Positions 181 through 63,859 of a stretch of 64,000 bases of DNA are shown here, in pieces. Source of the stretch: an uncultured Gemmatimonadaceae bacterium (GTDB lineage Bacteria; Gemmatimonadota; Gemmatimonadetes; Gemmatimonadales; Gemmatimonadaceae); the NCBI GenBank assembly GCA_963829055.1, contig CAWHHI010000005.1, positions 192,001 through 256,000 of the forward strand, in the 5' to 3' direction. Each line of letters begins with the position of its first letter. Within the stretch, counting starts at the first letter, position 1. The notes under the pieces were generated by a model. It saw nothing but the letters and a program-made list of their open reading frames with translations. It was not told the DNA's origin and did no database searches. The position numbers and the translations under genes were made by a program.

Positions 181-402
181 GCGACCGCCAGACGCGATAC
201 GTTGTGCGTAGACGACTCATGCGCGTCAGTGTTTCCGGCTGATCTGTTACGCGAGCATTCCGGCATCATTTCGATGAGCTACGACCAATTCGACCCGAGT
301 TCTCACGGCCAGGACGCAGCAACGAGAGAACAGGTTGCGACGCCACCCGATGGGTCCGCTTCCGTTCCGCCTAACGCCGATGACAGTGGGACATCGGTGG
401 GG

Positions 403-492
403 GACCCCGCGCGCGCGATGGGCGGCGACCTGACCGTGCGCAGCACGGTCGGCGTCGGCACCACGCTTACACTGAGCCTCGAGCGCGCTTGA
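403..492 (+). pseudogene. Histidine kinase HATPase_c C-terminal remnant
   Basis: DPARAMGGDLTVRSTVGVGTTLTLSL aligns with DLARGMGGDLTAESRLGSGSTFILTLP (1307..) and DLARAMGGDIAVQSTPGVGSRFILTLP (28635..). No N or G1 box upstream. Confidence 0.55.
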
Positions 493-1217
493 TTCACGTC
501 CATCATGGCCTCCCCCTCCCCCTCCCTCCCTCCGATCTCGATCCCGCAGACGTCCCGCCGCCTCGGTTCGTGCCGCTGCGTTTCACGCACCGGACGCTCG
601 ACGAGTCCCGCGCGCGAGCTCACGCGTTCTTCGAGGAGATGAACCGCCGCCGCACGACGCGGCATTTCGCCGCCGACGATGTGCCTCGCGAGCTCATCGA
701 ATGCGCGATCCGCACCGCCGGGACCGCGCCGAGCGGAGCACACCAGCAACCGTGGACGTTCGTCGCCGTGTCGGACCCGGCGCTCAAACGCCAGATCCGC
801 GACGCCGCCGAAGCGGAGGAGCGCGAGTTTTACAACGGGAAAGCGCCGCGCGAGTGGCTCGAGGCGCTCGCGCCTCTTGGAACCGACGAACACAAGCCGC
901 ACCTCACGGACGCTCCGTGGCTGGTGGTCCTGTTCCGCCAGGCCTATGGGCTCGACGCGACTGGCCATAAGCGAACGCTCTACTACACCGAGGAGTCGTG
1001 CGGCATTGCCGCCGGGTTCTTCATTGCCGCGGTTCACCAAATGGGACTGGTGACGCTCACGCACACGCCGAACCCGATGGGGTTCCTGCGCGAGTTGCTC
1101 GGCCGCCCGGTGAACGAGCGGGCGATGCTCATCATGCCGGTGGGCTACCCGGCGGACGGCGCGCAGGTACCGGACCTCTCACGGAAAGCGCTCGATGAGA
1201 TCGCGGTCTGGCGGTGA
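489..1217 (+). CDS. Nitroreductase family, iodotyrosine deiodinase (IYD)-like
   Basis: RRTTRHF, TAPSGAHQQPW, EEREFY, LGTDEHKPHL, LVTLTHTP and VPDLSRK are IYD-subgroup motifs. Start uncertain. Confidence 0.85.
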   Translation: MIHVHHGLPLPLPPSDLDPADVPPPRFVPLRFTHRTLDESRARAHAFFEEMNRRRTTRHFAADDVPRELIECAIRTAGTAPSGAHQQPWTFVAVSDPALKRQIRDAAEAEEREFYNGKAPREWLEALAPLGTDEHKPHLTDAPWLVVLFRQAYGLDATGHKRTLYYTEESCGIAAGFFIAAVHQMGLVTLTHTPNPMGFLRELLGRPVNERAMLIMPVGYPADGAQVPDLSRKALDEIAVWR

Positions 1218-1306
1218 GGCGTTCGGACACGCGGTGACGTCGCCTAACGCGCAGACCCGGGCTGCCCTCGTCCGCCGAGGGCTGGTGGCGCAACGCGGCG
1301 GTGCGG

Positions 1307-5389: not shown

Positions 5390-7550
5390 ATGCGTTCTTC
5401 CTTGCTTGCCTGCCTGCTGCTGCCCTCGGTCCTGACGTCGAACGCGGTCGCCCAGCGTGCGACCGCGCGCGATTCCGCGCAACGCGACTCTGCTCAATCG
5501 CTGCCGGGGGTAACGATCGCGGCCACGCGGTCGCCCGCCTCCATCCTGACCACGCCGCTCGCGGTCACGAGGCTTTCGGCGCCCGAGTTGCGGTCCCTGG
5601 GCGGGTTCGGACTGGATGAGGCGCTCTCGCGGGTTCCGGGCGTCATCGCCCAGTCGCGGTATGGCACGAGCGACATCCGGCTGATGATCCGCGGCTTCGG
5701 CGCGCGCGGGGCCGGCGACCGGTCGAACTCCGGCACCTCGCGAGGCGTTCGCGTGCTGCTCGACGGGTTTCCCGAAACCGAGCCGGATGGACGGACCGCG
5801 CTCGACCAGCTCGATCTCGCGACGGCGAATGGAATAGAGGTGATCCGCTCCAACGCGTCCGCGCTCTGGGGCAATGCGGCGGGCGGCATCGTCAACGTCG
5901 TCACAATGCCCACGACGACCGTACCACTGTACGAAGTGCAGCCCATCTTCGGAGACTTCGGGCTCGCGCGTTATGCGGTACGCACATCGATGCCCATCGG
6001 CGGGGACGGCGTGCTGTGGGCGAACTTCACGAACACGTCGTTCGACGGCTGGCGCGAGCACTCGGACGCGCGCCGAGCGCTCGTGAACGGTGGCGCGGTT
6101 GGACGAGCTGGGGAGAAGACGCGGCTCGGCCTGTTCTTCACGGCCGCGAATAATCTCATGCACGTGCCCGGCCCGCTCACGCAGGCGCAGGTGGACGCGG
6201 ACCCCAATCAGGCGAATGCGACGTATCTGCAGCGCGATGAGCGGCGCTACAATCGCGTCGGGCGGCTCGGGGTCACTGTCGATCACGACGTGAGCGGGTC
6301 GTTCGCGCTGTCGTCGATGCTCTACGTGAACCCCAAGTATCTGCAGCGCTCCGAGCGCAACACGTTTCGCGACTTCACGCGCTACCACTTCGGCGGCAGT
6401 GTCATGGCGCGGAAGAGCCTGACCACCGCCAGCACGCACTCCCTCATCACGCTCGGCGTGGATGACGCCTACCAGGACGGCGCGATCCTGTTCTACACCC
6501 TGTCACCGACGCAGGACCGCGGCACGACGCTCACGGACAACAAGGGCGAGGGGGCGAACAACTTCGGCGTGTTTCTCCAGGACGAGGTCAGCGTCGGCGA
6601 ACGCCTAACGCTGTCGCTGGGCGCGCGCTACGACGCCGTCGCGTACAACTACCGGAGCTTTCTCCCCAACCCGCCCGTGTCCTCCGACCACCGCAACTTC
6701 TCGCGCGTGTCGCCGAAGCTCGGCGTCAGCTGGTTGATGAATGCGACGCACAGCGTGTACGCGAACGTGGGCGGCGGGATCGAGGTACCCGCGGGCAACG
6801 AGACGGATCCCACGCCCGGCGCACCGCCGGCGCTGCTCAATCCGCTGCTCGACCCGATCCGCTCGACGACGTACGAGGTGGGCTTGAAGTCCGTGCCCGC
6901 GTCCGCGAGCGTCCGCCCGTTCGTCCTGGGGTACGACGTCGCGCTGTACGACATCGAGGTGACGAACGAGATCGTGCCGTACAACGGTGGCCGCTACTAC
7001 CTGACCGCTGGCAAGGCACGACGTCAGGGGGCCGAGGTGGGCCTCAATGCGTCGGTCGTCGTTAGGCCTGTTCGGGACGGCGGCGCTCACGTTCTCGAAC
7101 AACACGTACACGGACTACGTCGTGGATTCCGCGGTGATCTTCCCGACGGATCCGACGAAGGTCGGGAAGAAAGCCGACTACAGCGACAACGACGTGGTGG
7201 GTGTGCCGAGCGCGCTCGTGAACATCGAGATCGGCACCGAGGTGCCGGGGTTTCGCGCGCTCCTGCTCAAGGCTGGGGTCGAGCACTCGGGGAAGTACTT
7301 CGCGGATGACGCGAACAAGGTCGGCGTTCCGTCGTTCACGATCCTGAACCTGACGGCGGAGCTTCGCGACCCGATCCTGACGGTGGGCGACGTGGGCCTG
7401 CGTGGCTTCGTGACGGTGAAAAACGCGACGAACAAACGCTACATCGGCTCGGCGTTCCTGAACCCGGACCTGGTGGGCGGTGCACCGGCGGCGTTCGAGC
7501 CGGGCATGCCACGGGCGGTCATCGTTTCGTTATCGTTAGGCAGACGGTAA
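5390..7550 (+). CDS. TonB-dependent outer membrane receptor, frameshift near 7050
   Basis: Signal peptide, plug motifs (IRGFG, IEVIRS, ALWGNAAGGIVN), barrel strands; the C-terminal part in ORF 7047..7550 ends EPGMPRAVIVSLSLG. Confidence 0.85.
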
Positions 7551-8243: not shown

Positions 8244-8244
8244 G

Positions 8245-8700: not shown

Positions 8701-8703
8701 GGC

Positions 8704-9787: not shown

Positions 9788-9790
9788 CGG

Positions 9791-17243: not shown

Positions 17244-19896
17244 ATGAAATCGATCAGGTGGCGAGTGATCATCATCCTCGCCCTCGTTGTCGCGAGCGTC
17301 TTCGCGCTCGTACCCCGCAGCGTCAAGCAGCGCCTCTACGACTCGCGCACCGGTCAGATGCGCGACACCACCGTCCGCCGCGTTCCCATCAACATGGGCC
17401 TCGACCTTCGCGGCGGTGTTCACCTCGCGCTCGAGGTCGACGAGTCGCGCGGCAAAGTCGCCGATTGCGCCGACGCGATCCGTCGCGCCGAACGCGTCGT
17501 GCGCGCACGCATCGACGAGTTCGGAACGACGGAGCCCGTCGTCCAGATCGCGAGCGACTGTCGCCTGGTTGTCGAGCTTCCCGGCGAGACCGATCCCGCA
17601 CGCGCCCGGTCGATCGTCGAACGCACGGCGTTCCTCGAGTTCCGCATCACGGACGCGAAGGAGCAATTCCGGCGCGCGCTCCCCTCGATCGATGTCGCGT
17701 TGCGACGAGCGGGAGTTGCAAACGCCGCGGCGCCGCGGACGACCGCCAGCGCAGATGTCGTCACCGGTCTCCTCTCGCCCGACAGTGCGCGTGCTACGAC
17801 TGACACCACGATCAACGCGGCCAACGCCACGACCGAGGGCGGCGTGCTGTCGTCGCTCCTCACGCCTGGTCGTGTCCCTGGAGAATTCATCGTCGCCGAA
17901 GAAAGCGTCGCTCAGGTCGAGCAGCTGATCGCGAAGCCGGAGGTGCAGCAACTCGTTCCGCGCGGACTCGAGCTGCGATGGGGCACACCGATCGCGACGC
18001 GAGAGACGCGAGCGTTCCGGCCACTTTACGCGCTGCAGTCGCGAGCCATCATCACCGGCGAGGAAATCCAGAAAGCCGTCGCTGGCCGAGACCCCACGAC
18101 CAACGCGGCCGAAGTGCAGTTCGAGCTCACGCGGCCCGGCGGACGCCAGTTCGGCGACGCGACCGGTCGCAACATCGGCAATCACCTCGCGATCCTGCTC
18201 GACGGGCGCGTACAGGGCGAGCCGCCCGTCATCCGCGACCGCATCACGTCGAACGGACGCATCGAGCTCGGTGGCAAGTCGCTCGAGGAAGCAAACGACC
18301 TCGCGCTCATGCTGCGCGCCGGCGCGCTTCCGGTACCGCTCCATGTCGTCGCCCAGGGAACCATCGGCCCGTCGCTCGGCATGGACTCCATCCGCGATGG
18401 CGTGCGCGCGTCGGCGCTTGCGGTTGGGTTCGTGCTGGTCGTCATGGGCGCGTACTACGGATTCGCCGGACTCCTCGCTGTCGCCGCGCTCGCCCTGTAC
18501 GTGCTCTACTGCCTTGGCGGTCTCGCCGTGTTCGGGTTCAACCTGACGCTCCCGGGACTCGCGGGCTTCGCGCTGTCCATCGGAATGGCGGTCGACGCGA
18601 ACGTGCTGATCTTCGAGCGCATGCGCGAAGAGCTCGACGCGGGGAAACCCGTTAGGCGCGCGATCGATGAAGGGTTTCGGCACGCGATGAGCGCCATCGT
18701 CGACTCGAACGTCACGACCGCGCTCACCGCGCTGATCCTGTACGTGGTGGGCACGGGACCCGTGCAGGGATTCGCGATCACGCTGCTCGTCGGACTCGTG
18801 GCGTCGATGGTCACCGCCGTCTTCGTCACGCGCACGTTCTTCCTCGTGTGGGTGAAAGCGCGTCCGAACATGACGACGCTTGAAGCATTTCACGTTCAGG
18901 CTGTTCGCGAACGCGCGCTACGACTTCATCGGCGTGCGACGCTGGGCGTACGGCGTGACGGCCGCGCTGATCGTGCCGGGCATGATCATGCTCGCCGCGA
19001 CTGGGCATCACGTACAGCATCGAGTTCACGGGCGGTGCGCTGATGCACGTGCGCACGGACGACGCCCGTGGAGACGACACGCCTCCGCACCGCGCTCGAG
19101 CGCGGCGGTGTGAACAACCCGGAGATTCAGAGCTTCGGCTCGGCGCAGGAGTACGTGATCCGCGCTCGTCTCGACGGAGCCGCGGACGGCAACACGCGGA
19201 GCGCCGAGATCGCGGCGTCGGTGAGCAAGGCGCTCGATGCCGACCTGGGCACGGGCACGTATCAGATCGTGCGCAGCGAGGGCGTCAGCTCCGAAGGTCG
19301 GCGGTGAGCTTCAGGAGAAAGCGCTCATCGCGATTCTCTTCAGCTTCGTCGCGACGCTCATCTACCTCGCGTTCCGCTTCGAGTGGCGCTTCGGCCTCGC
19401 GGCCGTGATCGCGACGGCGCACGACGTGCTCGCGACGGTCGCGTTCATTCGCTACCTGGATCTCGAGGTGAGTCTCGTCGTGGTGGCGGCGGTGCTCACG
19501 GTACTCGGCTACTCGCTCAACGACACGATCGTGATCTTCGATCGCGTGCGCGAGAACGTGAAGCTCCACGCGCGCAAGCCGCTGGCGGAGTTGTTGAATC
19601 TTTCGATCAACGAGACGTTGCCGCGGACGATACTCACCGGCGGCACGACGCTGGCGACGGCGCTCGTGCTCTCGTTCTTCGCCGGCGAGGTGATCAAGCC
19701 GTTCGCGCTGGTGATGACGTTCGGCATCATCGTCGGCACGTTCTCTTCGATCTTCGTCGCGTCGCCGGTGCTGCTCGGCATAACGCGGCGTTGGGGCACT
19801 CCGAAGCCGAGTACAAGCAGCAGTGTCATCCGCGCAGCCGAGCCAGCGCGTGTCATCCCGAGCGGCAGCGAGGGACCTTCCGTGACGTCATCGTAG
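17244..19896 (+). CDS. secDF: Protein translocase SecDF, probably fused; frameshifts at about 18880-19290
   Basis: MGLDLRGG, LRAGALP, IGPSLG, GMAVDANVLIFER, IVDSNVTT (SecD); IEFTGG, GYSLNDTIVIFDRVREN, GTFSSIFVASP (SecF). Confidence 0.9.
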
Positions 19897-25116: not shown

Positions 25117-25721
25117 ACGGTCACGTCGGTCGGCTGGGCAGGGCGCTCGGCGTGTCGCTCCAACCATTCTGCCCCCGCGAACACGCCTAACGCCGCTGCC
25201 ACGATGATGCCGACCACCACTCCGTACGAGAGTCCGAGCGCCTGCGGCAGCGTCCACGCGCCGCGCGCCGTGCTGTCCGCGAATCCACCAATTGCGGGAA
25301 ACGCCTCGCCGAACACGAACACGCCGACAAGCATACCCGCGATGAGCGCCCATCCATCCTTTCGTCCAGTCGCCGCGGCCACGCACGACGTGCCCGGGCA
25401 GAGCCCGCCCGTCGCGAACCCTACGCCGAACACCAACCCGCCCACGATCTGTGGCGCGATGAACGTTTCCGGCACGTAGATGCGGGAGAGATCGAGCAGC
25501 CCCGCCCACGACAGCCAGAACAGCCCGAGCATCGCCGTCAGGATGGCGCTGAACATGAGCTTCAGCACCGAGAGGTCCGTGAAGTAGAACTGACCCGCGA
25601 GCTTGCGCGCGTTGCCCATGCCGCCACGCTCGAGGAACCAGCCGAACGCGATCCCGAGCAGCACCGCGACGACGAGGCTCATCCCGTCGCCGAAGCGACC
25701 GAGCTCGTAGAACGGCGCCAT
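25113..25721 (-). CDS. YeeE/YedE family sulfur-compound transporter subunit
   Basis: FGWFLERGG, GGLVFGVG...GLCPGT. Confidence 0.85.
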   Translation of the reverse strand: MAPFYELGRFGDGMSLVVAVLLGIAFGWFLERGGMGNARKLAGQFYFTDLSVLKLMFSAILTAMLGLFWLSWAGLLDLSRIYVPETFIAPQIVGGLVFGVGFATGGLCPGTSCVAAATGRKDGWALIAGMLVGVFVFGEAFPAIGGFADSTARGAWTLPQALGLSYGVVVGIIVAAALGVFAGAEWLERHAERPAQPTDVTV

Positions 25722-31195: not shown

Positions 31196-31200
31196 TCGCG

Positions 31201-31857
31201 TTAGGCGGCGGTGCTGGTCAGCCGGGCGCTCGACAGACGGTCGAGCATTTGCGCGGCGGCATCGAAATGCTGGCGGACGTCGAACCCCTTCGGGTCGATC
31301 ACGGACTGCAGGGCGCAGCCGTGAATGAGACTCACCGCGACGCTGGCCACGCCTTCCGCCGTCGCCACCGCCGTCGGCGTAGCCGCTGCCGTGGTGCCCG
31401 CAGACATGGATGGGTCAGCGGTCACGACGGCTGCCGCAACTTCTCTGAACGCGGCACGGTACTCCTCGAGCACTACGCGAATCCGCTGCCGGATCGCGGT
31501 GTTGCGCACGCCAGTGGTCCAGTAGTCGAGAAACAACCGGAAATGCCTCGGATCGGTGGACAGTCGATCCATCTCGGCCCGGAGCAACGCGTGCATCCGG
31601 TCCGAGGGCCGAGTGATCTGGGCGACGCCGTCGGGAATGCGGAGCACCGCGGTCGCGTACAACACGCGATCGAGCAGACTCGCCACGAGCTCGTGCTTCC
31701 GCTTGAAGTGGAACAGCACGGTCCCGTGACTCACGTCGGCTCGCGCCGCGACCGCGCGGAGCGTCAGGGCCTCGAGGCCCTGACGCGCGGCCACGTCGTA
31801 CGCGGCGCGCAGGATGTCTTCGCGCCGCGTTTCTTCAGAAACCTTTCGTCCAACCAT
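31201..31857 (-). CDS. TetR family regulator (BetI-like C-terminus)
   Basis: RREDILRAA...GLEALTLRAVAARADVSHGTVLFHFKRK. Confidence 0.9.
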   Translation of the reverse strand: MVGRKVSEETRREDILRAAYDVAARQGLEALTLRAVAARADVSHGTVLFHFKRKHELVASLLDRVLYATAVLRIPDGVAQITRPSDRMHALLRAEMDRLSTDPRHFRLFLDYWTTGVRNTAIRQRIRVVLEEYRAAFREVAAAVVTADPSMSAGTTAAATPTAVATAEGVASVAVSLIHGCALQSVIDPKGFDVRQHFDAAAQMLDRLSSARLTSTAA

Positions 31858-31971: not shown

Positions 31972-33684
<1,713 letters not shown>

Positions 33685-33704
33685 TCAGCGCCCGGTTCCC
33701 GTGC

Positions 33705-34013
33705 TCAGGACAGCACGGCCAGAACGTCGCTCTCGCGGAGGATGAGAAGCGCCTCGCCGTCGATCGTGACTTCAGTGCCGCTGTATTTCCCGTACAGAAC
33801 CTTGTCGCCGACCTTCACTTCCATCGGCACGCGCTTGCCGTCGTCGAATCGGCCTGGGCCGGCAGCGACGATCTCGCCCTGCTGCGGCTTTTCCTTCGCG
33901 GTGTCGGGGATGAACAGTCCGCCGCGCGTCTGCTCGTTGCCTTCGAGTGACCGGACGACGACACGGTCCGCGAGCGGACCAACGTTGATGGATGTCGCGC
34001 TCTTGGTGGCCAT
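33705..34013 (-). CDS. groES: Co-chaperonin GroES
   Basis: [31 protein letters not shown]. Confidence 0.98.
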
Positions 34014-34074
34014 GGGTCGTGCGCCTCGCTGCTAGGTGGGACCGGGCGCAGGCAGATTGAACAGCGCCCAGCAG

Positions 34075-34128
34075 TCATTGACCAGTTGGATAATGAAGCA
34101 TACCTGTTTTCATCCAGTTGGTCAATGA
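34075..34128 (-). promoter_or_regulatory. groES sigma70 promoter TTGACC-17-TATGCT with two TetR-type operators
   Basis: -35 at 34125-34120, -10 at 34102-34097; boxes TTGACCAGTTGGATAA (34078-34093) and TCATCCAGTTGGTCAA (34110-34125). Confidence 0.75.
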
Positions 34129-34421
34129 GCCGTTGACCGTGCCCACAGGGTGTGCTACGTTTCGCGCTCGATCCGTCCGGCAACCACTCGAGATTCGGTG
34201 TCGTATGCGTTCTCGTCGCATGACTGCTGCCAACAGGCGGAACTCGATCGCGGGCCGCTGGCGTCCGTGGCTCTGGGACAGTGTGCCCGACGACATGGCC
34301 GCGAATGATGCGCCGTCCGAGGCCCCGATCGACGGGCCTTCGCGCGAGCAGATTTCGCTCTGGGCCGACGACGCCGCGTTAGGTCCGAGCGGCCCGCAGC
34401 TGCGACTGGAGTAGCGCACGG

Positions 34422-46338: not shown

Positions 46339-48171
46339 ATGTCCTGGTCGTCATCGATATTCGTTGGCATTCTCACCGCCGTCGTCGGATTGTTCGTCAG
46401 CGCATACGTCGCCTACCTCGCCGTCGGCTGGTATCGCATTCCGAGCTTTGAAGCGGGATCGGCGGCGTTCACCGTCCTGTTGGCGATCGCGGGGCTCGTA
46501 GGCGGCTTTCTCATCGGACTCATAACGAGTCGAGTCATTGCCAGCGGCGCGGAACCGGGATTCTTCAAGGCGCTCGGCATCTCACAGGGTATCCTGCTCG
46601 GCGTCGTCGTCGTGGTTGGTGGCACTGCCCGCTTGCTGGCGGACGTACCGCCCGAGTTGAATGGCGAGGTGCTGATGCTCTCCGTAGAGGTGCGTTGGCC
46701 GGCCGGCCACACCGAGTCGCCGGCGACACTCCCGGGCGAGCCGTTCATACGCCTCGGATCAGTGACCCGCGCCTCGAACACGCAGCGCGCGTCGTCGCGT
46801 GGCCCGCTGTACACCCAGGACGCTCACCTCGTCGATGGACGATGGGTCGTGCCGGGGGCGGTCGACATCTTCACTACGCGTGGACGGTTCGTGCTCGATG
46901 TCGTGCTCGACTCGTCGACGAACCATGGGTTTCTCCTCCCCCTCTCCGGCGCGCCCGGCAAGAAGGACCTGGCGTGGACGGAGTGGTACCCGCACGCGCG
47001 GCCCGGCAGCCCGCCGCTGCCTAACGGGTTCACGTACCGCTACCGCGTGCAGCCGCGCAGCCAGCCGGTCCGCGTCGACACGGTCGGCCCCTTCGAGATC
47101 GCGACGATCGCCGGCTACTTCTTCGACCAGGAGATCGAGGGGAAGACGAGACTCGCCACGATGGCCGAGTTCACGATCAAGCACCGAGGGAAGCCGCTCT
47201 CGATCGAGGGCGAGGCGTCGACGTCGGAGAGCGGGACTGCCACACTGAGTCGCGCCGACGACATCGCGGCCGTTGCCGGACCGCAGCCGGCGCTGCTCAT
47301 GCACTTCGTCAACACGTCCAGCTCGGACGTGTGTTTTCTGATCACCGATCAGGCAGGCAGTATCCACTCCGAGGCGGTGCCCGATTGCGTCGGCGCGTTC
47401 AACGCATCGGTGCTCACATCGGACCTCGCGTCCTTCCGCCGCGGCGATGCTCGACGTGTTCCACGCGGGCAGGTCGACCGCGCGACGTTCGCGAACCCGG
47501 GGCTCTTCCTCGTGGGGCGCTCGATCGTCGACACGCGGCACCTCGCGATTCGCCGGTTCGATCTGCCGGAGGATTTTTCGCTCGTGCCCAGCGTGCCGCC
47601 GCTCGGTGTCTCACCCGATGACCGTAGCTTCGCGCGATTCGGCTATGCGCAGCACTCCGACACGAACCCGGTGATCCTCGTGACGGATGTCGTCGCGAAC
47701 GGCACGTACATGCTGCCGATCGACCGTCCGCGCATGCACTTCGCGAATCTCGACGCGCTCGATCCGGCGTGGCTGCTTCACCACTTCGTGTGGCAACATG
47801 TCGCGAATGGCGCGGACTCGCTCGTCGAGCGACCTGGCTTCGTTCCGATTCCCTATCACGGCCGCGTGTACGAGAGCGCCGGGTATCGCTCGTACAAGCT
47901 GGAGCCCGCCAGCGAAGGCCTGCGCACGGCACTCATTGATTTTCTCGTCGCCGAGATGAAAGCCGAGCGCATGCCGGTTGACTCGGGCGCGTACGAATAC
48001 CCGATTACGATCGACGGTCAGACGGTAGACATCGGGTACAGCTCGAGCCCAGGCTACGTGTCAGCGACGCTCAAGAGCGATTCGACCGACATCGAGCTGC
48101 TGAGGACGATCGCCCGCCGGTTCGACGCCGCGCTGGCGACGGGCAAGTACGACGCCCTGTTCGGCAAGTGA
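46339..48171 (+). CDS. Hypothetical protein, three N-terminal TM helices plus a large soluble domain
   Basis: 610-aa ORF with a hydrophobic N-terminus; no family recognised. Confidence 0.75.
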   Translation: MSWSSSIFVGILTAVVGLFVSAYVAYLAVGWYRIPSFEAGSAAFTVLLAIAGLVGGFLIGLITSRVIASGAEPGFFKALGISQGILLGVVVVVGGTARLLADVPPELNGEVLMLSVEVRWPAGHTESPATLPGEPFIRLGSVTRASNTQRASSRGPLYTQDAHLVDGRWVVPGAVDIFTTRGRFVLDVVLDSSTNHGFLLPLSGAPGKKDLAWTEWYPHARPGSPPLPNGFTYRYRVQPRSQPVRVDTVGPFEIATIAGYFFDQEIEGKTRLATMAEFTIKHRGKPLSIEGEASTSESGTATLSRADDIAAVAGPQPALLMHFVNTSSSDVCFLITDQAGSIHSEAVPDCVGAFNASVLTSDLASFRRGDARRVPRGQVDRATFANPGLFLVGRSIVDTRHLAIRRFDLPEDFSLVPSVPPLGVSPDDRSFARFGYAQHSDTNPVILVTDVVANGTYMLPIDRPRMHFANLDALDPAWLLHHFVWQHVANGADSLVERPGFVPIPYHGRVYESAGYRSYKLEPASEGLRTALIDFLVAEMKAERMPVDSGAYEYPITIDGQTVDIGYSSSPGYVSATLKSDSTDIELLRTIARRFDAALATGKYDALFGK

Positions 48172-48207: not shown

Positions 48208-49530
48208 GTGATGTGGAATCCCGCTGTAGAGACAATGCCGCGATCCGGGCTCCGAGAGCTCCAACTCGATCGCCTGCGCTGGAGCGTGCGGTGGGCGTAT
48301 GACCGCGTTCCATTTCACAAGCGGCGCCTCGACGCGGCGCGCGTTGCACCGGACGAGATCCGCTCGCTCGACGATCTGCGCCGCCTCCCGTTCATGGTCA
48401 AGGCGGACCTTCGCGACAACTATCCCACAGGGTTATTCGCGGTTCCTCACGAAGAGATCGTCCGCATCCACGCATCGAGCGGCACGAAGGGAAAGCCCAC
48501 GATCGTCGGGTACACGCGCGAGGACATCGAGACGTGGGCGGAAGTGTGTGCGCGCTCGCTCGCCTGCGGCGGCGCGGACGATCGCAGCGTCATTCACATC
48601 GCCTACGGCTACGGCCTGTTCACCGGCGGACTCGGCATCCATTTCGGCTCGGAGCGACTCGGCGCGCTCACGGTGCCGGCGTCCGGCGGCAACACGCTCC
48701 GTCAGCTCACGCTCATGCAGGACCTCGCCGCCACGGTCCTCTGCTGCACGCCGAGCTACGCGCTCAACATCGCCGAGACAATGCGTGAGCGCGGCATCGA
48801 GCGCTCGTCGCTCGCGCTCACGGTCGGCGTGTTCGGGGCCGAGCCGTGGACCGTCGGCATGCGGGAGGAGATCGAGCGCGCGTTAGGCCTCAGGGCGCTC
48901 GACATCTACGGTCTGAGCGAGGTGATGGGACCGGGTGTTTCGATGGAGTCGGCCGACGATCGCGACGGGTTGTTCATCTGGGAGGACCACTTCTACCCTG
49001 AAGTGATCGACCCGGCCTCGGGCGAAGTGCTGCCCTATGGCGACGAGGGAGAGCTGGTGTTCACGACGCTCACCAAGCGCGCATTCCCCGTGCTGCGTTA
49101 TCGAACGGGCGACATCTGCGCGCTCTTCGCCGAGCCGAGTCGCAGTGGGCGGACCATGGTGCGCATGACGAAGGTGAAGGGGCGGACGGACGACATGCTC
49201 ATCGTGCGCGGCGTGAACGTGTTTCCGAGCGAGATCGAGCGCGTGGTGCTGGAGCAGCGCGAGCTCGCGCCGCACTACCAGATTCTCCTGTCGCGTGACG
49301 GCGCGCTCGACCAGCTCGCCGTACACGCCGAGCTCGACGCGGTGGTGTGGGAATCGTTAGGTGCGACCGTCGACTGCGATGGCGCGCGCCACCTGGCCGG
49401 CCGCCTCCGTGACGAGCTGGCGAACGTGCTGGCGATCACCGCTGACGTGGTGCTGCGTCCGCCAGGTGGTATTCCCCGGAGCGAGGGCAAGGCCGTGCGG
49501 GTGGTTGATCGCCGCACCAGCCCGGCATAG
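48208..49530 (+). CDS. paaK: Phenylacetate-CoA ligase
   Basis: RIHASSGTKGKPT, YGYGLFTGGLG, DIYGLSEVMGPGV, RYRTGD, GRTDDMLIVRGVNVFP. Confidence 0.9.
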   Translation: MMWNPAVETMPRSGLRELQLDRLRWSVRWAYDRVPFHKRRLDAARVAPDEIRSLDDLRRLPFMVKADLRDNYPTGLFAVPHEEIVRIHASSGTKGKPTIVGYTREDIETWAEVCARSLACGGADDRSVIHIAYGYGLFTGGLGIHFGSERLGALTVPASGGNTLRQLTLMQDLAATVLCCTPSYALNIAETMRERGIERSSLALTVGVFGAEPWTVGMREEIERALGLRALDIYGLSEVMGPGVSMESADDRDGLFIWEDHFYPEVIDPASGEVLPYGDEGELVFTTLTKRAFPVLRYRTGDICALFAEPSRSGRTMVRMTKVKGRTDDMLIVRGVNVFPSEIERVVLEQRELAPHYQILLSRDGALDQLAVHAELDAVVWESLGATVDCDGARHLAGRLRDELANVLAITADVVLRPPGGIPRSEGKAVRVVDRRTSPA

Positions 49531-51027: not shown

Positions 51028-51654
51028 CTACCTACCCCGCTTCGCGCGGTCGAGCTTTGGTGGGCGTTTGCCTCGCCGGAGGGCACCGGCTACCGGGATG
51101 TAGTCGAGCTCGCGGCCCTCGCGTGCACTCCGGAGCAGCAGTCCCCCGCGACTCATGTCGCCGCGGCCGACGAAGTCGGTTGGAAAGAGGAGTCGTGGGC
51201 CCAGTGCGTCGAGCAGGGCGTCCACGTATTTGCCCGTCGCGATGCTCCCGAGCAGAACCACGGTGTCTTCGTCCGACAGGGCGGACGCGAGAGTCGCGAC
51301 GTCGCGCGTGAGTGGGCCGATGTAGCGCTCGTCGCCCGCGGCGATGTCGACCTCACTGAAGCGCTGGAGATCTTCGGCACGAATGCGAGTCTCCGGTGGG
51401 GCGAGCCCGCGGTCCGCGGTGATCACGAGGATCCTCGGTACCGAGTCAGCGGCCGAGGCGAAGGCGCGGGCGTAGGTGAGCTTGCCCCGGAAATAGAGCC
51501 CGCTCAGGAAGCTGAAGACCTCGCCCAGCTCTGCCCCGTCGGGCTCGCGTAGCCTAACGGCCAGTGAGAACTGGGCACGGGGGTTCAGCAGGAGCTGCGC
51601 GCGCCGGCCGTCCGAGCGTGCCGGAGAGAGAAGGAACACCGGCGATCGAGCCAC
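51028..51654 (-). CDS. Conserved-looking hypothetical protein
   Basis: VFLLSPA, FSFLSGLYFRGKLTYA, LLGSIATGKY, FVGRGDMSRGGLLLR. Start uncertain. Confidence 0.7.
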   Translation of the reverse strand: MARSPVFLLSPARSDGRRAQLLLNPRAQFSLAVRLREPDGAELGEVFSFLSGLYFRGKLTYARAFASAADSVPRILVITADRGLAPPETRIRAEDLQRFSEVDIAAGDERYIGPLTRDVATLASALSDEDTVVLLGSIATGKYVDALLDALGPRLLFPTDFVGRGDMSRGGLLLRSAREGRELDYIPVAGALRRGKRPPKLDRAKRGR

Positions 51655-51783
51655 GAACGCGGAGTCGTGCAAGTCGCATGCGACGTGTGGTGATCGGAGG
51701 TGTTCGCGCGTGTCTGGATGCACAAACGGCCGCGCCCCAGGGGCGCGGCCGCATGCATCGAGCAGTGGAGACGTCCGGAGTCG

Positions 51784-52269
51784 TTAGGCGACGCGGCGCT
51801 GTCTCGAGCGCTCCGCCTCCGCTTCAGGCAGCGTTCCGGCAGTCGCCGGACTGCGGCCCGCGAGCACGCTGTCGATCGAGAACCGGCCGGCGCCAGCCGC
51901 GACGAGCGCGGCGCTCGTGGCGAGGAGCAGGAGGGCGAACTCGTATCCCTGCGGCATGAAGAAGCCGTTCTTCAGATGCACCAGGAGAATGGCGCCGAGC
52001 ATGTCGAAGGCCAGCCCGAGCGAGACGAGGCGCGTGAGCAGTCCGATGACGAGCGCGATACCGCCGAAGAATTCGAGCAGGGCGATGAACGGGCCCATCA
52101 CACCAGGCATGGGCACTCCCATCTGACCGAAGGCTCCAGAGACGCCGGCGAATCCGTAGACGAACAACTTCTGTGCGCCGTGGGCGATGAAGATGGCGCC
52201 GGTGACAATGCGCAGCAGTGTGAGTGCGATACTCGCCTGGCGCTCGGTCGTGGTGCGGAAGATCGACAT
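51784..52269 (-). CDS. DoxX family membrane protein
   Basis: [34 protein letters not shown]. Confidence 0.92.
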
Positions 52270-54898: not shown

Positions 54899-54950
54899 CG
54901 CCGGGCCGACTCAGCCTAACGCTGCCTAACGGCCACGGGCACCCACGCCC

Positions 54951-56534
54951 TCACATCGTGCACAGGGCCGCCGGGCGCGCCACGTCCCCGGCGGGAACGG
55001 CCTTCACCTCGAAGAACTGCACCGTCGGCGGCATCGTCGGCGCGAGCGTGATCGACACCCGCAGCGCGCCGCGATCGCAGGGCATCGTCCACTGGCCACG
55101 CAGCGCGTTCTCGACGATGTCGAACCCCGTACCTGCCCTGCACGGCCCCACATCCGCTGTGAACTTCGCGATCTCCGCCTTCCGACGATCGCGCGAGCGG
55201 TCCAGGAACAGGTTGACCGCGGCGAGGCTATCGGCAAGGCGGTCGTCCCAATGCATAACGAGTCGCGACACGGCCTCTCGGCGTGCCGTCAATACCGCCG
55301 ATGGCTGGACCTTTCGGGGCGTAAGCCCGCCGGTCTTCAGCAGGATGCCGAACGCGTCGTTCGCCGGCCCGCCCCACCCGGTGTACGTGCGGTTACCGAA
55401 TGCGATGATGCCCACCCCGTACTCGGGCAGCCAGCGCATGAGCGACCCGAATCCCGGCAGTCCGCCGCTGTGCGCCACGATGTGCGCGAAGTTGCAGTCA
55501 CCGGAGATGCCGAGGCCGTAGCCGTAGCCGCCGCTGTAGAGCTGCATCGTTCCGTTGGCCGCCCGCGTGACCGTCGCGGGCCGCGGCCGATGGATCTGCT
55601 GCATCTCGCGCACGGACGCGCGCCTAACGGGGCCGGTCTCGGGCCCGTCGTGCGGCGGCCACGCACCGAGGAACATGCCCACGTACGCGCCGAGGTCACG
55701 GGTGGATGTCAGCATGCCGCCCATGGAGCCGAACGCGCCGTCGGGCAACTGCGGCTCGAGCTTCCACTGCTCGTCCTCCCACCGGTACCCCTGCGCGAGG
55801 CGCGACGCCGGCACCGACGCCGGCTCGAGCGTCGTCGACGTCATGCCTAACGGGCGCAGGATGTTCTCGGCGATGTAGCGGCGGTACGGCATGCCCGACG
55901 CGCGGGTGACGATCCGCCCGAGAATCGCGAACCCGTAGTTCGAGTACTCGTAGGCGACACCCGGCGCGTTCGAGAACGGAATGCCGGCCCGCATCATCCG
56001 CGACATCTCCTCGTCCGTCACGGCCAGCTGCTGGTCGCCCCACGGGTTGTCCTCGGGAAAGCCCGTCGCGTGCGACATGAGGTGGCGGATCGTGAGGCGC
56101 GGCGAGTCGCTGGTCGGATAGGCGAGCCCCTTGAGCTCGGGCACCCACCGCTCGGCCAGGTCGTCGAGCGACAGCTTCCCGTCGTCGCGCAGCTTGAGGA
56201 TCGCGAGCGCGGTGAAGCTCTTCGTCATCGACGCGATGCGGAACACAGTGCCGCTGTCCACGGGCGACTTCGCCGCCACGTCGCGGTACCCCGTCACGCC
56301 GACGTGAGCGAGGCGGCCGTCGATGACAATGCCCCAGACAGCGCCCGGGATGTGCTCGCGCTCCGCGTACTCCCGGAAGACCTGGTCGATATCCCCGAAC
56401 GCCGAAGACAGCTTCGTCACGCGGTCAGGGTCGGCAAACTGGGGTCCGGGCGCCCGGGGCGGGGTGCTCGCGACCTGGGCCTGAACGGTTGGCACGGCCG
56501 CAACGAGCATGGCGGCCAGAAATCGTCTCATCAT
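54951..56534 (-). CDS. Serine hydrolase, beta-lactamase/PBP-like family
   Basis: Signal peptide; FRIASMTK (SxxK), YSN, HSGG. Confidence 0.9.
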   Translation of the reverse strand: MMRRFLAAMLVAAVPTVQAQVASTPPRAPGPQFADPDRVTKLSSAFGDIDQVFREYAEREHIPGAVWGIVIDGRLAHVGVTGYRDVAAKSPVDSGTVFRIASMTKSFTALAILKLRDDGKLSLDDLAERWVPELKGLAYPTSDSPRLTIRHLMSHATGFPEDNPWGDQQLAVTDEEMSRMMRAGIPFSNAPGVAYEYSNYGFAILGRIVTRASGMPYRRYIAENILRPLGMTSTTLEPASVPASRLAQGYRWEDEQWKLEPQLPDGAFGSMGGMLTSTRDLGAYVGMFLGAWPPHDGPETGPVRRASVREMQQIHRPRPATVTRAANGTMQLYSGGYGYGLGISGDCNFAHIVAHSGGLPGFGSLMRWLPEYGVGIIAFGNRTYTGWGGPANDAFGILLKTGGLTPRKVQPSAVLTARREAVSRLVMHWDDRLADSLAAVNLFLDRSRDRRKAEIAKFTADVGPCRAGTGFDIVENALRGQWTMPCDRGALRVSITLAPTMPPTVQFFEVKAVPAGDVARPAALCTM

Positions 56535-60291: not shown

Positions 60292-62109
60292 GTGCGAGCA
60301 GCGTGGCGTCCACTGCTCGCGTTAGGGTTCATCCTCGGCGGCCTCGCTGCGGGGTTGCTCGAATCCGGGGCCGCGTACGATCGGGTAATCTGGTACGCAG
60401 GGCTCGCGATCACCGGCAGCGCAGTCGTCTGGCGCACGCTGCGAGGCGCCGTGCGCGGTCAGTTCGCCTCCGACGTCGTGGCGACGCTGGCCATTGTTGC
60501 CGCCGCGCTTCTCGGCCACCCCGTCGTGGGGCTCGTCATCGTCCTCATGCAAACGGGCGGCGAGGCGCTGGAGCGGTATGCCGAGGGCCGGGCGTCGGAC
60601 GCGGTGCGTGCGCTCGAAGCGGCGGCGCCGAGGGTCGCGCACCGGCTGCGCGGCACCGCGACCCATGACGTGCGCGCCGATGACGTCGCCATCGGCGACC
60701 TGTTGCTCGTTAGGCCCGGCGAGCTCATTCCGTGCGACGCCGTGGTCGTCGACGGCACGTCGCACGTCGACGCGTCCATGTTGACGGGTGAGTCGCTCCC
60801 CATCTCGGCGGCGCGCGACACGCGGCTCATGAGTGGCAGCGCGAATCTCGACGGGCCGCTGACCGTCCGCGCGCTGGCCACCGCGCAGGAGAGTCAGTAC
60901 GCGCGCATCGTCGCGCTCGTCAGGTCGGCGCAGGCGAGCAAAGCTCCACTGCAGCGCGTGGCCGACCGCTATGCCGTGTGGTTCACACCGGTCACGCTGA
61001 TCGTGTGTGCCCTTGCCTACGCCGCGAGCGGAGACTGGCTGCGCGTGCTGGCGGTGTTGGCCGTCGCCACACCCTGCCCGCTCATTCTGGCCACGCCGGT
61101 TGCCGTGATCGGCGGCATCAATCGCGCGGCGCGGCGGCAGATCATCATGCGTCACGGCACGGCGCTCGAGCGGGTGGGTACCGCGACTGTCGCGGTCTTC
61201 GACAAGACCGGGACCATCACCATCGGCCAACCCCGCGTGCGCGAAGTCGTGACGGCGGCCGGCTCCGCGGCCGCTGACGTGCTGCGGCTTGCCGGCGCTG
61301 TCGAGCGTTCGTCCGGGCATCTGCTCGCGCGCACGCTCGTGCATGCCGCAGAGGCGAGTGGCGTGGCGCTCCCGCAGGCAGAGCAGGTCGTCGAAGTGCC
61401 CGGTCGCGGCGTATCGGGAATGGTCGAAGGACACTGCGTCATCGTGGGCGCGAGGTCGTTCGTGCTCGAGCGATCGTCGGGTGGCGAGGCCGCCCTTGCC
61501 GGTTTCGAGCCGGCCGAATCCCAGTTGCGCGCGTACGTCGCGGTGGACGGCGCCGTCGTCGCGACGGTGGAGTACGCCGACGCACTACGCCCGGGCCTGT
61601 CTGACGTCTTCCGCGACCTCACCACGCTCGGCGTTAGGCGCGTGATGCTGTTGTCCGGCGACCACTCGAAGACCACGCGCACCGTCGCCGCGGCCGCGGG
61701 GATCGCCGAGGTGCAGGGAGACCTCCTGCCGGAGGACAAGGTGACGGTGGTGCGCGCGCTCGTGGCGAGCGGCGAGTCCGTGTTGATGGTGGGCGACGGG
61801 ACCAACGACGCTCCGGCGCTGAGTGCCGCGACGGTGGGAATCGCGCTTGCCGGTCACGGCGGCGGCATCACGGCCGAAGCCGCGGACGTCGTCATCCTGG
61901 TCGACGACCTGTCGCGGGTCCCGGAGGCGATGCGCATCAGCCGCCGCACGATGCACATCGCCCGTCAGTGCATCGGCGTCGGGCTCGGGCTGAGCGCCGC
62001 GGGCATGCTCGCCGCGGCGTTCGGCGGACTTCAGCCAACCGCGGGGGCACTGGTGCAGGAGGCGATCGACCTCGCCGTCATCGTCAACGCGCTCCGGGCG
62101 AGTCGTTAG
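60292..62109 (+). CDS. Heavy-metal P1B-type ATPase (PCP / QExxD, P1B-5-like)
   Basis: LTGES, ATPCPL, DKTGT, GDGTND, QEAID. Start uncertain. Confidence 0.9.
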   Translation: MRAAWRPLLALGFILGGLAAGLLESGAAYDRVIWYAGLAITGSAVVWRTLRGAVRGQFASDVVATLAIVAAALLGHPVVGLVIVLMQTGGEALERYAEGRASDAVRALEAAAPRVAHRLRGTATHDVRADDVAIGDLLLVRPGELIPCDAVVVDGTSHVDASMLTGESLPISAARDTRLMSGSANLDGPLTVRALATAQESQYARIVALVRSAQASKAPLQRVADRYAVWFTPVTLIVCALAYAASGDWLRVLAVLAVATPCPLILATPVAVIGGINRAARRQIIMRHGTALERVGTATVAVFDKTGTITIGQPRVREVVTAAGSAAADVLRLAGAVERSSGHLLARTLVHAAEASGVALPQAEQVVEVPGRGVSGMVEGHCVIVGARSFVLERSSGGEAALAGFEPAESQLRAYVAVDGAVVATVEYADALRPGLSDVFRDLTTLGVRRVMLLSGDHSKTTRTVAAAAGIAEVQGDLLPEDKVTVVRALVASGESVLMVGDGTNDAPALSAATVGIALAGHGGGITAEAADVVILVDDLSRVPEAMRISRRTMHIARQCIGVGLGLSAAGMLAAAFGGLQPTAGALVQEAIDLAVIVNALRASR

Positions 62110-63175
62110 GCTCCGGCGCCTGTTCACGCGGTGCGATCGCGAACGCCGGGGGGAGCACGACGGGCGGTGCGAGCGCTGGATCGGTCGCGTCGCCGTATTC
62201 GCGGCGGTAGAGCCGAACGAGCTCGAAGAAGTAGGTGATGGCGAGGGGCCCGAGCAGGATGCCCGGCAGGCCGAGCACGCCCACGCCAGCGAACGCGCCG
62301 ACGAGCGTGGTCATGGGATGCAGGTTCGACACGCGGCGGTTCACGAGCGGGCGCATGACGTTGTCGACGTTGCTCGCGACGACGGCGCCGAGCGCGGCCA
62401 GGCCAACGCTCGCGCCGTAGCGGCCCTGCACCGCGAGCGCCACCGCGCCCGGCAGCCAGACGACCGCGCTCCCCAGCACCGGGAACACGGACACGACGGC
62501 GGTCACCACGCCCCAGAACAACGCGTCGGGCAACCCGGTGGCGACGAAGCCTAACGCGACGACGGCGCCCTGAAGGACGCCGGTCAGCGCCGTCCCGAGC
62601 AGCGTCGCCTCGGTCACGTGGCGGAAACGATCGCGGAGGACGTCGGCGCCCGCGGCGGAGAACGGGAGCGTGGACGCGACCGCCTGCCACGCCTCGGTGC
62701 CCGACAGCAGCAGGAAGTACAGGCCGAACAGCGCGACCACCATGTTGAGCGTCCCGCGGACGGCCCCGCCTAACGCCCTGAACGCCTGTGCCGACGCCCA
62801 GGAGACGAGCTCCCCACCCGCCGCGACGACTCGCGTGCCCACGTCGACGCTGCCGATCCGAACCGCCGCGAGTCGCGCCAGGCCGTCGCTCGCCTGCAGC
62901 TGGCGAAGCGCCGCCGGGGCCTGGCCGATGGCGATGACCAGCAGCCACGCGAGAGGTACCAGGATGAGCACGGTCGTCGCGACGACGACGACGGCCGCGG
63001 ACGCACGACGCGGCAGGAATGCGAGCAGCCGGCGGTAGACGGGCGCGACGGCGACGTACAGCACGAGCGCACCGAGAAGTCCCGCCGCGAACGGCAGGAG
63101 GGCAATGGCGATGGCGACCCCCAGCACGACCACGAGCAGCTGTGCGCGATCGCGTGGCGAGTTGAACGCGTTCAT
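62084..63175 (-). CDS. AI-2E family transporter
   Basis: FPVLGSAVVWLP, VDNVMRP, GLPGILLGP. Confidence 0.9.
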   Translation of the reverse strand: MNAFNSPRDRAQLLVVVLGVAIAIALLPFAAGLLGALVLYVAVAPVYRRLLAFLPRRASAAVVVVATTVLILVPLAWLLVIAIGQAPAALRQLQASDGLARLAAVRIGSVDVGTRVVAAGGELVSWASAQAFRALGGAVRGTLNMVVALFGLYFLLLSGTEAWQAVASTLPFSAAGADVLRDRFRHVTEATLLGTALTGVLQGAVVALGFVATGLPDALFWGVVTAVVSVFPVLGSAVVWLPGAVALAVQGRYGASVGLAALGAVVASNVDNVMRPLVNRRVSNLHPMTTLVGAFAGVGVLGLPGILLGPLAITYFFELVRLYRREYGDATDPALAPPVVLPPAFAIAPREQAPEPNDSPGAR

Positions 63176-63364
63176 TGGTCGACTCGAGCGAGAGGCCGCG
63201 TTCCGAAGGTGCCGAGAGGTGGTCGTTGCGCCAAGGCGGGGTTCTCCCGACACGCGGTGCGGGATTACCGGATTGTTCGCGCCTCCAATCTCGCCGAGGT
63301 TGAGCGTGGCAACCAGTCGGTCAGCCATCTACCCGAGAGGCGATCAGAGAGACCGGGAGGAGCG

Positions 63365-63733
63365 ATGCGTATCGTGCTGGCCATTCTCATGACGCTCCAC
63401 GCTGTCGCGCATCTCGTCAGCTTCATCGAAGCGTGGCGGCTCATTCCGCAGGGGTTTCCCTACAAGACGACGGTTCTCTCGGGCCACGTCGACCTGGGAG
63501 ACGTCGGAATTCGCGCTGTCGGAGTCGTCTGGCTCGTGGTGGCCGGCGGGTTCCTGCTCGCAGCCATCGGGGCGTTCGCCGCCAGCACGTGGTGGGTGCC
63601 GACTGCGTTGGGCGTTGCGGTGTCGTCGCTCTTACTGACCTCCACCGAGCTGCCGGACGCGCGTGGCGGCGTAGCGATCAACCTCGCGATCGTCGTGGCC
63701 GTGGTGGCGGCGCGTCAGGTGGGATGGGTGTGA
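63365..63733 (+). CDS. Hypothetical 4-TM membrane protein
   Basis: GGAGGAG RBS; LHAVAHLVSF; hydrophobic helices. Confidence 0.7.
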   Translation: MRIVLAILMTLHAVAHLVSFIEAWRLIPQGFPYKTTVLSGHVDLGDVGIRAVGVVWLVVAGGFLLAAIGAFAASTWWVPTALGVAVSSLLLTSTELPDARGGVAINLAIVVAVVAARQVGWV

Positions 63734-63859
63734 GGCGCGCCGCCGCCTAACGCCACGGACGATGCGACGGACTGCTTCGGCAACGCCCTCAGACGAAGGG
63801 GTGAGCGGATTCGGCGGATCTGGCGGATTGACTCCTCAGGCGCGAACGTTCGGTGTGCA

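Follow-up and report, generated by a model that had tools for sequence, protein, structure and literature searches.

To our knowledge, only two families, both proteobacterial, are known for sequence-specific DNA uptake, and how the uptake words themselves originated is still debated. Two other kinds of over-represented short words serve as points of reference, namely, the cyanobacterial HIP1 (highly iterated palindrome 1, GCGATCGC), a hyper-abundant palindromic octamer that runs through coding sequence and overlaps methyltransferase sites, and the Chi sites, which are co-oriented with replication, are far less over-represented, and can be carried by phages. The DNA uptake sequence (DUS) occurs once per 400-1100 bp (PMC7371117), DNA uptake-enhancing sequences (DUES) show no orientation bias and uptake signal sequences (USS) are evenly spaced (PMC1939737), and ComN is a predicted DNA receptor in an uptake-sequence system (PMC12616744); further literature on uptake sequences includes PMC3630211 and PMC2817400. 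Here we analyze a 64,000-nucleotide stretch (henceforth, the window; C5:192001-256000, on contig CAWHHI010000005.1 of assembly GCA_963829055.1) from the genome of an uncultured Gemmatimonadaceae bacterium (G000; 7,784,024 bases in 20 contigs, 85.86% complete), through which a single non-palindromic octamer, GCCTAACG (reverse complement CGTTAGGC; henceforth, the word), is written, along with its heptamer CCTAACG and core CCTAAC.

The word resembles the DUS of Neisseriaceae and the USS of Pasteurellaceae in many respects: these, too, are short, non-palindromic words that occur about once per kb on both strands without replichore bias, lie mostly in genes against codon habits, are spaced more evenly than expected by chance, form dialects between related genera, are rare in islands, and accumulate in phages (PMC7371117, PMC1939737, PMC6776037, and PMC3630211). 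It differs from DUS and USS in that it belongs to another phylum, Gemmatimonadota judging from groEL similarity, and is another word; it lacks extended AT-rich flanks and terminator-like inverted pairs, and it coincides with the R-box of integron attC sites. The parallel with uptake sequences had been drawn already in a first, sequence-only reading of the window and is supported by the density, strand symmetry, and spacing reported below. That reading knew of no description of the motif, and our literature search for the heptamer and octamer, with subscription journals largely outside its reach, found none either, a single unrelated paper being the only match; nor did it find relevant literature on Gemmatimonas together with uptake sequences, natural transformation, or integrons.

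We predict that the word is a selected, lineage-specific self tag of the DUS/USS kind, a reading to which we assign a probability of roughly 0.45, that is, slightly short of even odds. Under this scenario, selection or molecular drive acting on the DNA itself would hold the word at about one copy per kb: the competence machinery would include a DNA receptor, at the surface or in the periplasm, with a preference for fragments bearing the word, and the word would spread and persist as chromosomal segments are replaced, time and again, by tagged DNA from kin. What we infer here is threefold: the word would have a protein reader, this protein would act in the course of DNA uptake, and biased uptake combined with recombination would provide the drive.

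Abundance in the window and in the genome

In the window, CCTAACG occurs 65 times (32 copies on the forward and 33 on the reverse strand, spanning 370..63752), about once per kb, compared with 3.13 copies expected from 100 dinucleotide-preserving shuffles (standard deviation 1.69, maximum 8), none of which (0/100) reached 65; 52 of these copies are the complete GCCTAACG or CGTTAGGC (25 forward, 27 reverse). The core CCTAAC is found 72 times (39 forward, 33 reverse) against an expectation of 6.48, and 72 of the 88 CTAA/TTAG tetramers lie within the word, with 16 elsewhere. These counts agree closely with those made by eye in the sequence-only reading, which gave about 72 hexamers (approximately 39 and 33 in the two orientations), about 65 heptamers, and about 15 other tetramers; its guess of about 68% for the GC content compares with a computed 66.75%, and every example coordinate that it listed is present in the full list of sites.

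The same abundance extends to the whole genome, which contains 7103 copies of CCTAAC, 6391 of CCTAACG, and 5004 of GCCTAACG (2457 forward, 2547 reverse), with a heptamer density of 0.64-1.09 per kb across all 20 of the 20 contigs, each of them near 50:50 by strand, and an octamer density of 0.64 per kb. Under order-1 and order-2 Markov models, the word ranks first among the 6- to 9-mers, the octamer being present at 38-49 times expectation, and order-3 and order-4 models built on the word-masked genome predict 19-25 octamers against the 5004 observed. A maximal-order Markov ranking was set aside in favor of these lower-order and masked-genome models because the word's own sub-words hold the enrichment and hide it in such a ranking. 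As a codon-aware null, synonymous codons were shuffled 10 times within each of 5763 called genes (5.41 Mb); the actual genes contain 3828 heptamers versus 292-355 in the shuffles (12-fold) and 3014 octamers versus 124-153 (about 21-fold). The enrichment thus persists genome-wide under the Markov and codon-shuffled nulls that had been proposed as a check, at 12- to 21-fold over codon shuffles, and the genome counts together with the codon-shuffle null bear out the original notion of a genome-wide signal at the DNA level that overrides codon use.

Genes were called with thresholds on GC content at third codon positions (GC3), which covered 54% of the genome, and with a codon-likelihood caller that covered 70%; many frames look broken, so that the shares of copies given below for genes and for the regions between them are approximate. 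Several genes are split across frames in G000 though intact in relatives, and it is therefore probable that the assembly carries indel errors. The word, on the other hand, is no assembly artefact, because it is found in 2501-5112 copies, frequently at shared orthologous positions, in six separate and far more fragmented congener assemblies of 260-1170 contigs. An artefact, as the sequence-only reading had reasoned, would leave the rest of the genome and the relatives without enrichment; all 20 contigs and the six congeners are enriched.

Anatomy, reading frames, and spacing of the word

The logo of the word is G(79%)-C-C-T-A-A-C-G(90%), with one or two weak flanking positions at most and information of about zero outside 9-10 positions. 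Because the flanks lack conservation, the word is neither an attC site nor a dispersed repeat element of the REP (repetitive extragenic palindromic) or MITE (miniature inverted-repeat transposable element) type; the repeat interpretation is rejected also on the strength of orthologous alignments, which show substitutions rather than insertions. Its one-mismatch neighbors are not depleted (observed/expected 0.65-3.2), those of the transition type being mildly raised; the exception among them is GCATAACG, with 583 copies versus 52-142 expected and weak flanks that match those of the word itself, which looks like a tolerated minor variant.

Among the 5004 octamers, called genes contain 3005 and the regions between them 1690, with 309 more at gene edges, a placement close to uniform expectation once the two stop-containing frames (GCC-TAA and CGT-TAG) are excluded. 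All four open frames are used, xCG-TTA-GGC with 1187 copies, xxG-CCT-AAC-G with 838, xGC-CTA-ACG with 565, and xxC-GTT-AGG-C with 415, and, within genes, sense (1403) and antisense (1602) copies are nearly equal in number. The word contains 65% of all TTA codons, spells 22% of the [APST]-L-G and 61% of the P-N-[VADEG] tripeptides, and supplies 264 of the 731 TAA and 193 of the 1513 TAG stop codons. The signal acts on DNA, not on protein; the earlier impression that the motif sits in genes in different frames and forces rare codons holds across the genome. Despite the AT-rich core, the word is denser where GC3 is higher: its density is 0.60 per kb in the lowest GC3 decile and about 1.0 in the upper ones.

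Orientation is equally even with respect to replication: 1069 forward and 1158 reverse copies fall in GC-skew-positive regions and 1698 forward and 1684 reverse copies in skew-negative ones, and word orientation correlates with GC skew at only r = -0.17 over 137 windows of 50 kb, that is, shows no replication-linked bias. The lack of strand bias that had been cited against Chi or KOPS (FtsK-orienting polar sequences) is, hence, seen on every contig and in both GC-skew classes. Close pairs of sites are scarce. Relative to an exponential expectation, gaps under 25 bp occur at 0.28, those of 25-50 bp at 0.30, those of 50-100 bp at 0.40, and those of 150-200 bp at 0.63, and gaps of 300-1500 bp are in excess, at 1.2-1.33; only seven gaps exceed 10 kb, and the number of sites per gene, given gene length, is close to Poisson. 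Spacing and replichore bias, both suggested for inspection at the outset, accordingly yield scarcity of close pairs and no bias.

Several individual sites in the window illustrate these features. The word provides the TAA stop of a TetR-family gene (31201-31857, reverse strand; word at 31199..31205, reverse) and of a DoxX gene (51784-52269, reverse strand; word at 51782..51788, reverse), and a reverse-strand copy at 62104..62110, read as CGTTAGG on the forward strand, forms the TAG stop of a P-type ATPase gene (60148-62109, forward strand); the three gene ends were checked and are as the sequence-only reading had them. A close direct pair with 10 bases between the two starts (54915..54931, forward) belongs to a type that is rare genome-wide. 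The longest heptamer-free stretch of the window, 3.2 kb (31206..34376), contains groEL and groES, and, in keeping with what had been noticed before, no copy of the word is present in groEL (31972-33606), groES (33705-34013), or the gene of a NirK-like multicopper oxidase (9791-10807).

Conservation among congeners and scarcity in islands

In six congeners, the regions orthologous to the window are 77-80% identical to it; high-scoring segment pairs below 72% identity and overlapping ones were dropped, and, the congeners not being independent, the figures that follow describe a pattern and are no formal test. The heptamers of G000 that are kept number 9 of 19 in G001 (against 23.7% of control heptamers), 16 of 24 in G002 (22.8%), 1 of 3 in G003 (21.8%), 3 of 9 in G004 (22.4%), 14 of 26 in G005 (26.9%), and 8 of 13 in G006 (25.0%). 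Of 36 aligned sites in the window, 25 are kept in at least one congener and 11 in none. Site conservation in orthologs, proposed as a check from the start, thus amounts to a roughly twofold higher retention of word sites than of ordinary heptamers at orthologous positions.

Conservation and turnover are both apparent at individual positions. The sites at 51553..51559 (forward; CCTAACG in G001, G002, G005, and G006, four of four aligned congeners), 55846..55852 (forward; five of five, G001, G002, G003, G005, and G006), 48881..48887 and 49355..49361 (both reverse, three of three), and 25186..25192 (forward; three of three, G001, G002, and G004) are kept throughout, and the site in a TonB-dependent receptor gene (6604..6610, forward) is kept in three of the four aligned congeners, with CCTGACG in G005. 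Other sites are private to G000. That in secD/F (18650..18656, reverse; GTT-AGG) has CGTGAGG, GGTGAGA, and similar strings in the relatives, differing from two of them by a single synonymous change; that at 55623..55629 (forward) corresponds to CCTCACG, CTTCACG, or CTTGACC; and at 47020..47026 (forward), G000 alone has the octamer GCCTAACG, encoding Pro-Asn, where the relatives have GGCCGACG or CGCCGACG, encoding Ala-Asp, so that, at this position, the word has altered the protein. Beyond the genus, DNA alignment of the window with G014, G300, G236, G293, and G289 gave mostly paralogous hits, too weak for an assessment of site conservation.

Within G000, the word is scarce in regions that look foreign. 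Two stretches near contig starts lack even CCTAAC, namely, C6:6854-55038 (48 kb), where ordinary metabolic genes come after an initial D5_N primase / RFX-like gene, and C11:7377-44055 (37 kb); each could be a recently acquired island or else a chimera of assembly or binning. In a prophage-like region (C16:425-470 kb), the word is found at about 0.35 per kb.

Patchy distribution and dialects across the phylum

The groEL gene of G000 is 80-82% identical to the groEL genes of Gemmatimonadales metagenome-assembled genomes. When the octamer was counted in 401 genomes sampled across the phylum, with the reversed word as a control, at least 300 copies were found in only 17 genomes besides G000, 12 of them in the family of G000 (genera g30, g33, g37, g39, g40, g42, g43, and g45) and the other 5 in a single genus, g73, of a second family; the remaining genomes have 0-191 copies, mostly below the reversed-word control. 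A nearer sample adds G010 (605), G030 (345), the six congeners, and G014, whose 6360 copies in 5.1 Mb amount to 1.25 per kb, the highest octamer density noted. The contrast can be sharp even within a genus: in g40, three genomes have 3479-4141 copies and the fourth (G289) has 66. No substitute hyper-abundant word was detected in 100-kb samples of the word-poor G124, G089, G008, and G068, under a script that recovers the word from 100 kb of G000.

The word also exists in two dialects between genera. The variant GCATAACG is enriched in genus g1 (318-583 copies), G014 (708), G189, G010, and G319, and is below control in the word-rich g40 genomes (13-30 copies) and in G300 (15); furthermore, in small samples, g40 holds firmly to position 1 and tolerates variation at position 8, the opposite of G000.

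Phage carriers and a possible intracellular reader

Three viral contigs carry the word at high density. L235 (IMGVR_UViG_3300049057_000028; 16,975 bp, GC 61%), which encodes a portal and the large and small terminase subunits, has 37 copies of CCTAACG versus 1.3 expected, by far the top heptamer of the contig; L260 (IMGVR_UViG_3300003324_000477; GC 67.6%) has 16 versus 0.5 expected in 12.2 kb, with copies inside each of its small and large terminase, portal, protease, and capsid genes; and L247 (IMGVR_UViG_3300049734_000243; GC 65.6%), with genes for an endolysin, an HNH nuclease, and a virion structural protein, has 13 versus 0.9 expected. A search for relatives of the L235 terminase retrieved only two distant loci, both without the word.

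Most other matches of the viral scans proved unrelated and were rejected: attC arrays, chance pairs, and a promoter-like 18-mer in contigs of about 43% GC. This 18-mer, TTCCCATCGCCTAACGGC, is conserved and repeated on a single strand in L127 and L150 (IMGVR_UViG_3300023212_000464 and _000371; 118 and 199 kb, GC about 43%), immediately 5' of genes and with an A-rich stretch and an ATG behind it; it resembles a promoter or regulatory element of a large phage and has nothing to do with the word. Separately, the viral contigs L132 and L118 (GC about 45%) contain (G)CCTAACG at about 0.8 per kb, mostly on one strand and without conserved flanks.

Temperate Pasteurellaceae phages accumulate USS to host-like levels and large lytic phages do not (PMC6776037), and, for this reason, the phage carriers are no evidence against an uptake signal. 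The same carriers, nevertheless, fit an alternative that we consider unlikely although it survives better than the others, namely, that the word is a Chi-like intracellular tag, such that a nuclease or helicase, a defense system, or a recombination enzyme would recognize DNA that bears the word, in either orientation, as the cell's own, and phages of these hosts would copy the tag. In favor of such a reader are the phages whose terminase, portal, protease, and capsid genes carry the word at a density like that of hosts or above it; the scarcity of close pairs and of long gaps, which would suit a reader that travels hundreds of bases along the DNA; and the foreign-looking islands devoid of the word. 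The word shares with Chi, the site of RecBCD or AddAB, a short, non-palindromic form and, under this reading, the role of a self marker. The word differs from Chi, however, in its lack of orientation bias by GC skew or by contig, and in our set of 36 chosen genomes (19 word-rich and 17 word-poor), assembled for testing candidate drivers, RecC (PF04257) was found in only 4, none of them in the word-rich genera g1, g9, g40, and g43, and was not found in 7 congeners, G014, or G300 either, in a search that did not cover AddAB. Moreover, no candidate gene for a Chi-like reader is at hand, and word-bearing phages are equally expected under uptake (PMC6776037).

A second alternative, which we regard as improbable, casts the word as the binding site of a lineage-specific nucleoid or chromosome-organizing protein that needs a site every kb or so. 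We know of no nucleoid protein that uses thousands of exact octamers, and our analysis found no chromosome-organizing protein of the kind required. The scarcity of close pairs, the strand symmetry, the presence in coding and non-coding DNA alike, and the positional conservation would all be compatible with such a site, but the patchiness within genus g40, where G289 has so few copies compared with its congeners, would be odd for housekeeping architecture, and the word-poor relatives have no substitute word.

Coincidence with integron attC sites

In the word-poor relatives, the few copies of the word are clustered on single strands about 550 bp apart and represent integron cassette arrays, with elements of about 90-135 nt of the form GCCTAACGG...GTTAGGC and short open reading frames in between. 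Such arrays lie beside IntI genes in G300, G319, G124, and G089, with R-boxes RYYYAACG / CGTTRRRY. Relative to the general core and inverse core of attC (GTTRRRY / RYYYAAC), the word is the commonest spelling of the clade's R-box, the extra G included. The arrays were found by searching with the word itself, which inflates the coincidence, and the R-box match is therefore less surprising than it looks; we treat it as a lead rather than an explanation.

For the bulk of the copies, attC structure is rejected, given that the flanks are not conserved and there is no surplus of convergent pairs at the attC-like distance of 50-150 bp (70 of 1710 convergent pairs in G000). More than 98% of the G000 copies lie in ordinary genes or spacers without an attC hairpin partner, and, unlike attC, nearly all of them lack the paired R''/L''...L'/R' palindrome of about 60-140 nt. 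An IntI-like gene is present in G000 (C20:208041-208958, reverse strand), right at the family cut-off with 265.7 bits. No cassette array adjoins it upstream. The handful of attC-like elements in G000 lie mainly at C20:173-205 kb, 3-35 kb past the 3' end of this gene, as hairpins that carry the R-box of the clade and are spaced far more widely than normal cassettes.

That an IntI-type recombinase reads the word, as a preferred cassette insertion site or as a decoy, is, in our judgment, very doubtful. Most copies in word-poor relatives do sit in cassette arrays, the R-boxes next to IntI share the form of the word, integron integrases are common in the family (above the cut-off in 26 of the 36 genomes), and, as a preprint reports, cassettes can insert into genomes at attG sites (bioRxiv 10.1101/2022.09.11.507474). 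The same source, however, gives the attG consensus as only GWT, which calls for no octamer. IntI, furthermore, is found in 13 of the 19 word-rich and 13 of the 17 word-poor genomes, and is missing or broken in six rich ones (G002, G004, G006, G014, G397, and G010); the variant GCATAACG does not fit RYYYAAC, and the shortage of attC structure and of convergent pairs as well as the way in which the arrays were located likewise count against this reading.

Apart from the word, Gemmatimonadales genomes contain large sedentary integron arrays (L081, that is, G021:C95:1-20000, as well as L082, L084, and L388). The G021 array includes 26 attC sites in 20 kb and no open reading frame of at least 400 amino acids, and attC length classes of 90, 93, 102, and about 132 nt recur in the large arrays.

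Search for a possible reader or driver

Across the 36 genomes, none of the candidate drivers tested (IntI, Vsr, ComEC, RecC, the Eco57I-type and D12-type methyltransferases, and two pilins) tracks word richness. The profiling of relatives against methyltransferases and competence genes that the sequence-only reading had called for was, thus, successful in part: profiles of the methyltransferases and of ComEC were obtained, and a gene that follows the word did not emerge from them.

With respect to methyltransferases, G000 (at its 85.86% completeness) has no match to the families PF01555, PF02384, and PF00145. It encodes an Eco57I/MmeI-type methyltransferase fused to an SNF2 helicase (C8:73551-78414), split over four frames, and a D12-type methyltransferase (C8:134570-135701), split over two; both splits suggest indel errors in the 20-contig assembly. 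The ortholog of the former is present in 36 of 36 genomes, with an open frame in the 35 others (about 1000-1400 amino acids in most), and, being found in every genome, rich or poor, is rejected as a driver; this methyltransferase-helicase is conserved across the family. The D12-type enzyme is rejected as well, for it is missing from the rich G014, G300, G319, G115, and G010 and present in the poor G289, G007, G009, G017, and G018. Vsr turned up in none (0/7) of the genomes in G000's genus, nor in G014, g40, or G300. Like HIP1, the word is a hyper-abundant octamer written through coding sequence; unlike HIP1, GCCTAACG is not its own reverse complement, and no methyltransferase that tracks it was found. 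The least credible of the alternatives, accordingly, is the methyltransferase- or repair-driven origin entertained in the sequence-only reading, a mutational bias of the HIP1 or very-short-patch kind whereby near-matches would become the word through the joint action of a modification enzyme and a mismatch nuclease: such a process would reach all DNA that replicates in the cell, that of phages as well, and agrees with the mildly raised transition-type neighbors, but it is at odds with the missing methyltransferase families and Vsr, with the failure of the remaining methyltransferase-like genes to track richness, with neighbors that are not depleted, and with the scarcity of close pairs, which a purely mutational process does not predict.

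The genome does encode machinery that an uptake tag would require. All of the 36 genomes encode ComEC; in G000, there are also PilM, seven prepilin N-termini, and a ComEA-like HHH_3 match that is weak. Such uptake genes (type IV pilus, ComEC, ComEA-like) occur in word-poor genomes, too. Two orphan pilins fail to follow word richness: the first occurs in only part of the genus, and homologs of the second turn up in word-rich and word-poor genomes alike. At C12:397797-402983, G000 has a type IV pilus cluster that comprises two PilA-like genes, an unannotated open reading frame of 388 amino acids, PilM, and two weak minor-pilin-like open reading frames (119 and 340 amino acids).

Weighing the uptake reading

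All sequence-level hallmarks described for DUS and USS are found here, and none of them proves uptake. Several considerations weigh against the uptake reading. Each of the sequence signatures would fit an intracellular reader equally well. ComEC, being shared by rich and poor genomes alike, does not discriminate between them, and the two orphan pilins, tested against word richness, yielded no candidate for a receptor such as a ComP-type minor pilin. The spacing analysis of G000 reveals no surplus of close inverted pairs like the terminator pairs of DUS, and the gene calls on which the placement of the word was evaluated cover only 70% of the genome. Our literature search found no paper on competence in Gemmatimonadales. 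The phage evidence is also less than straightforward: the true phage carriers come from two IMG/VR scans for word pairs and are, thus, a word-selected, biased sample; the density of CCTAAC in L235, 2.49 per kb, is at the top of what was seen in hosts (2.09 per kb in the G014 sample); and L235 DNA has only matches of about 200 bases in 24 genomes, in G124 and G014. The probability that remains beyond the five readings set out above belongs to something else.

Implications

Should the uptake reading be correct, the word would be a third independent case of an uptake word, in a distant soil phylum. The most far-reaching form of this scenario, which we consider decidedly unlikely, is that the word is the uptake tag of Gemmatimonadales transformation, the first outside Proteobacteria, and that integron cassettes, having two tags each by virtue of the R-box at either end of the clade's attC sites, come pre-addressed for uptake; the cassette arrays would then tie transformation directly to integron cassette exchange. 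Transformation is described as feeding cassettes into the chromosomal integron of Vibrio cholerae (PMC12614218), and the identity of the word with the integron core site raises the question of a link between transformation and cassette traffic in the Gemmatimonadales as well. If, conversely, the reader is no uptake receptor, the word marks an unknown system for the recognition of self DNA.

The intensity of the word ranges from none at all to more than one copy per kb, even among the genomes of a single genus, and, with its dialects and phage carriers, the word offers a natural experiment on the origin, spread, and decay of such genome-wide signals. Contrasts between genomes, such as G289 versus G236, G293, and G397, are sharp enough for the reader to be found by comparative genomics. 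In addition, the word is of practical use in these genomes as a marker: it can help to bin contigs, to link phages with their hosts, and to recognize recently acquired DNA.

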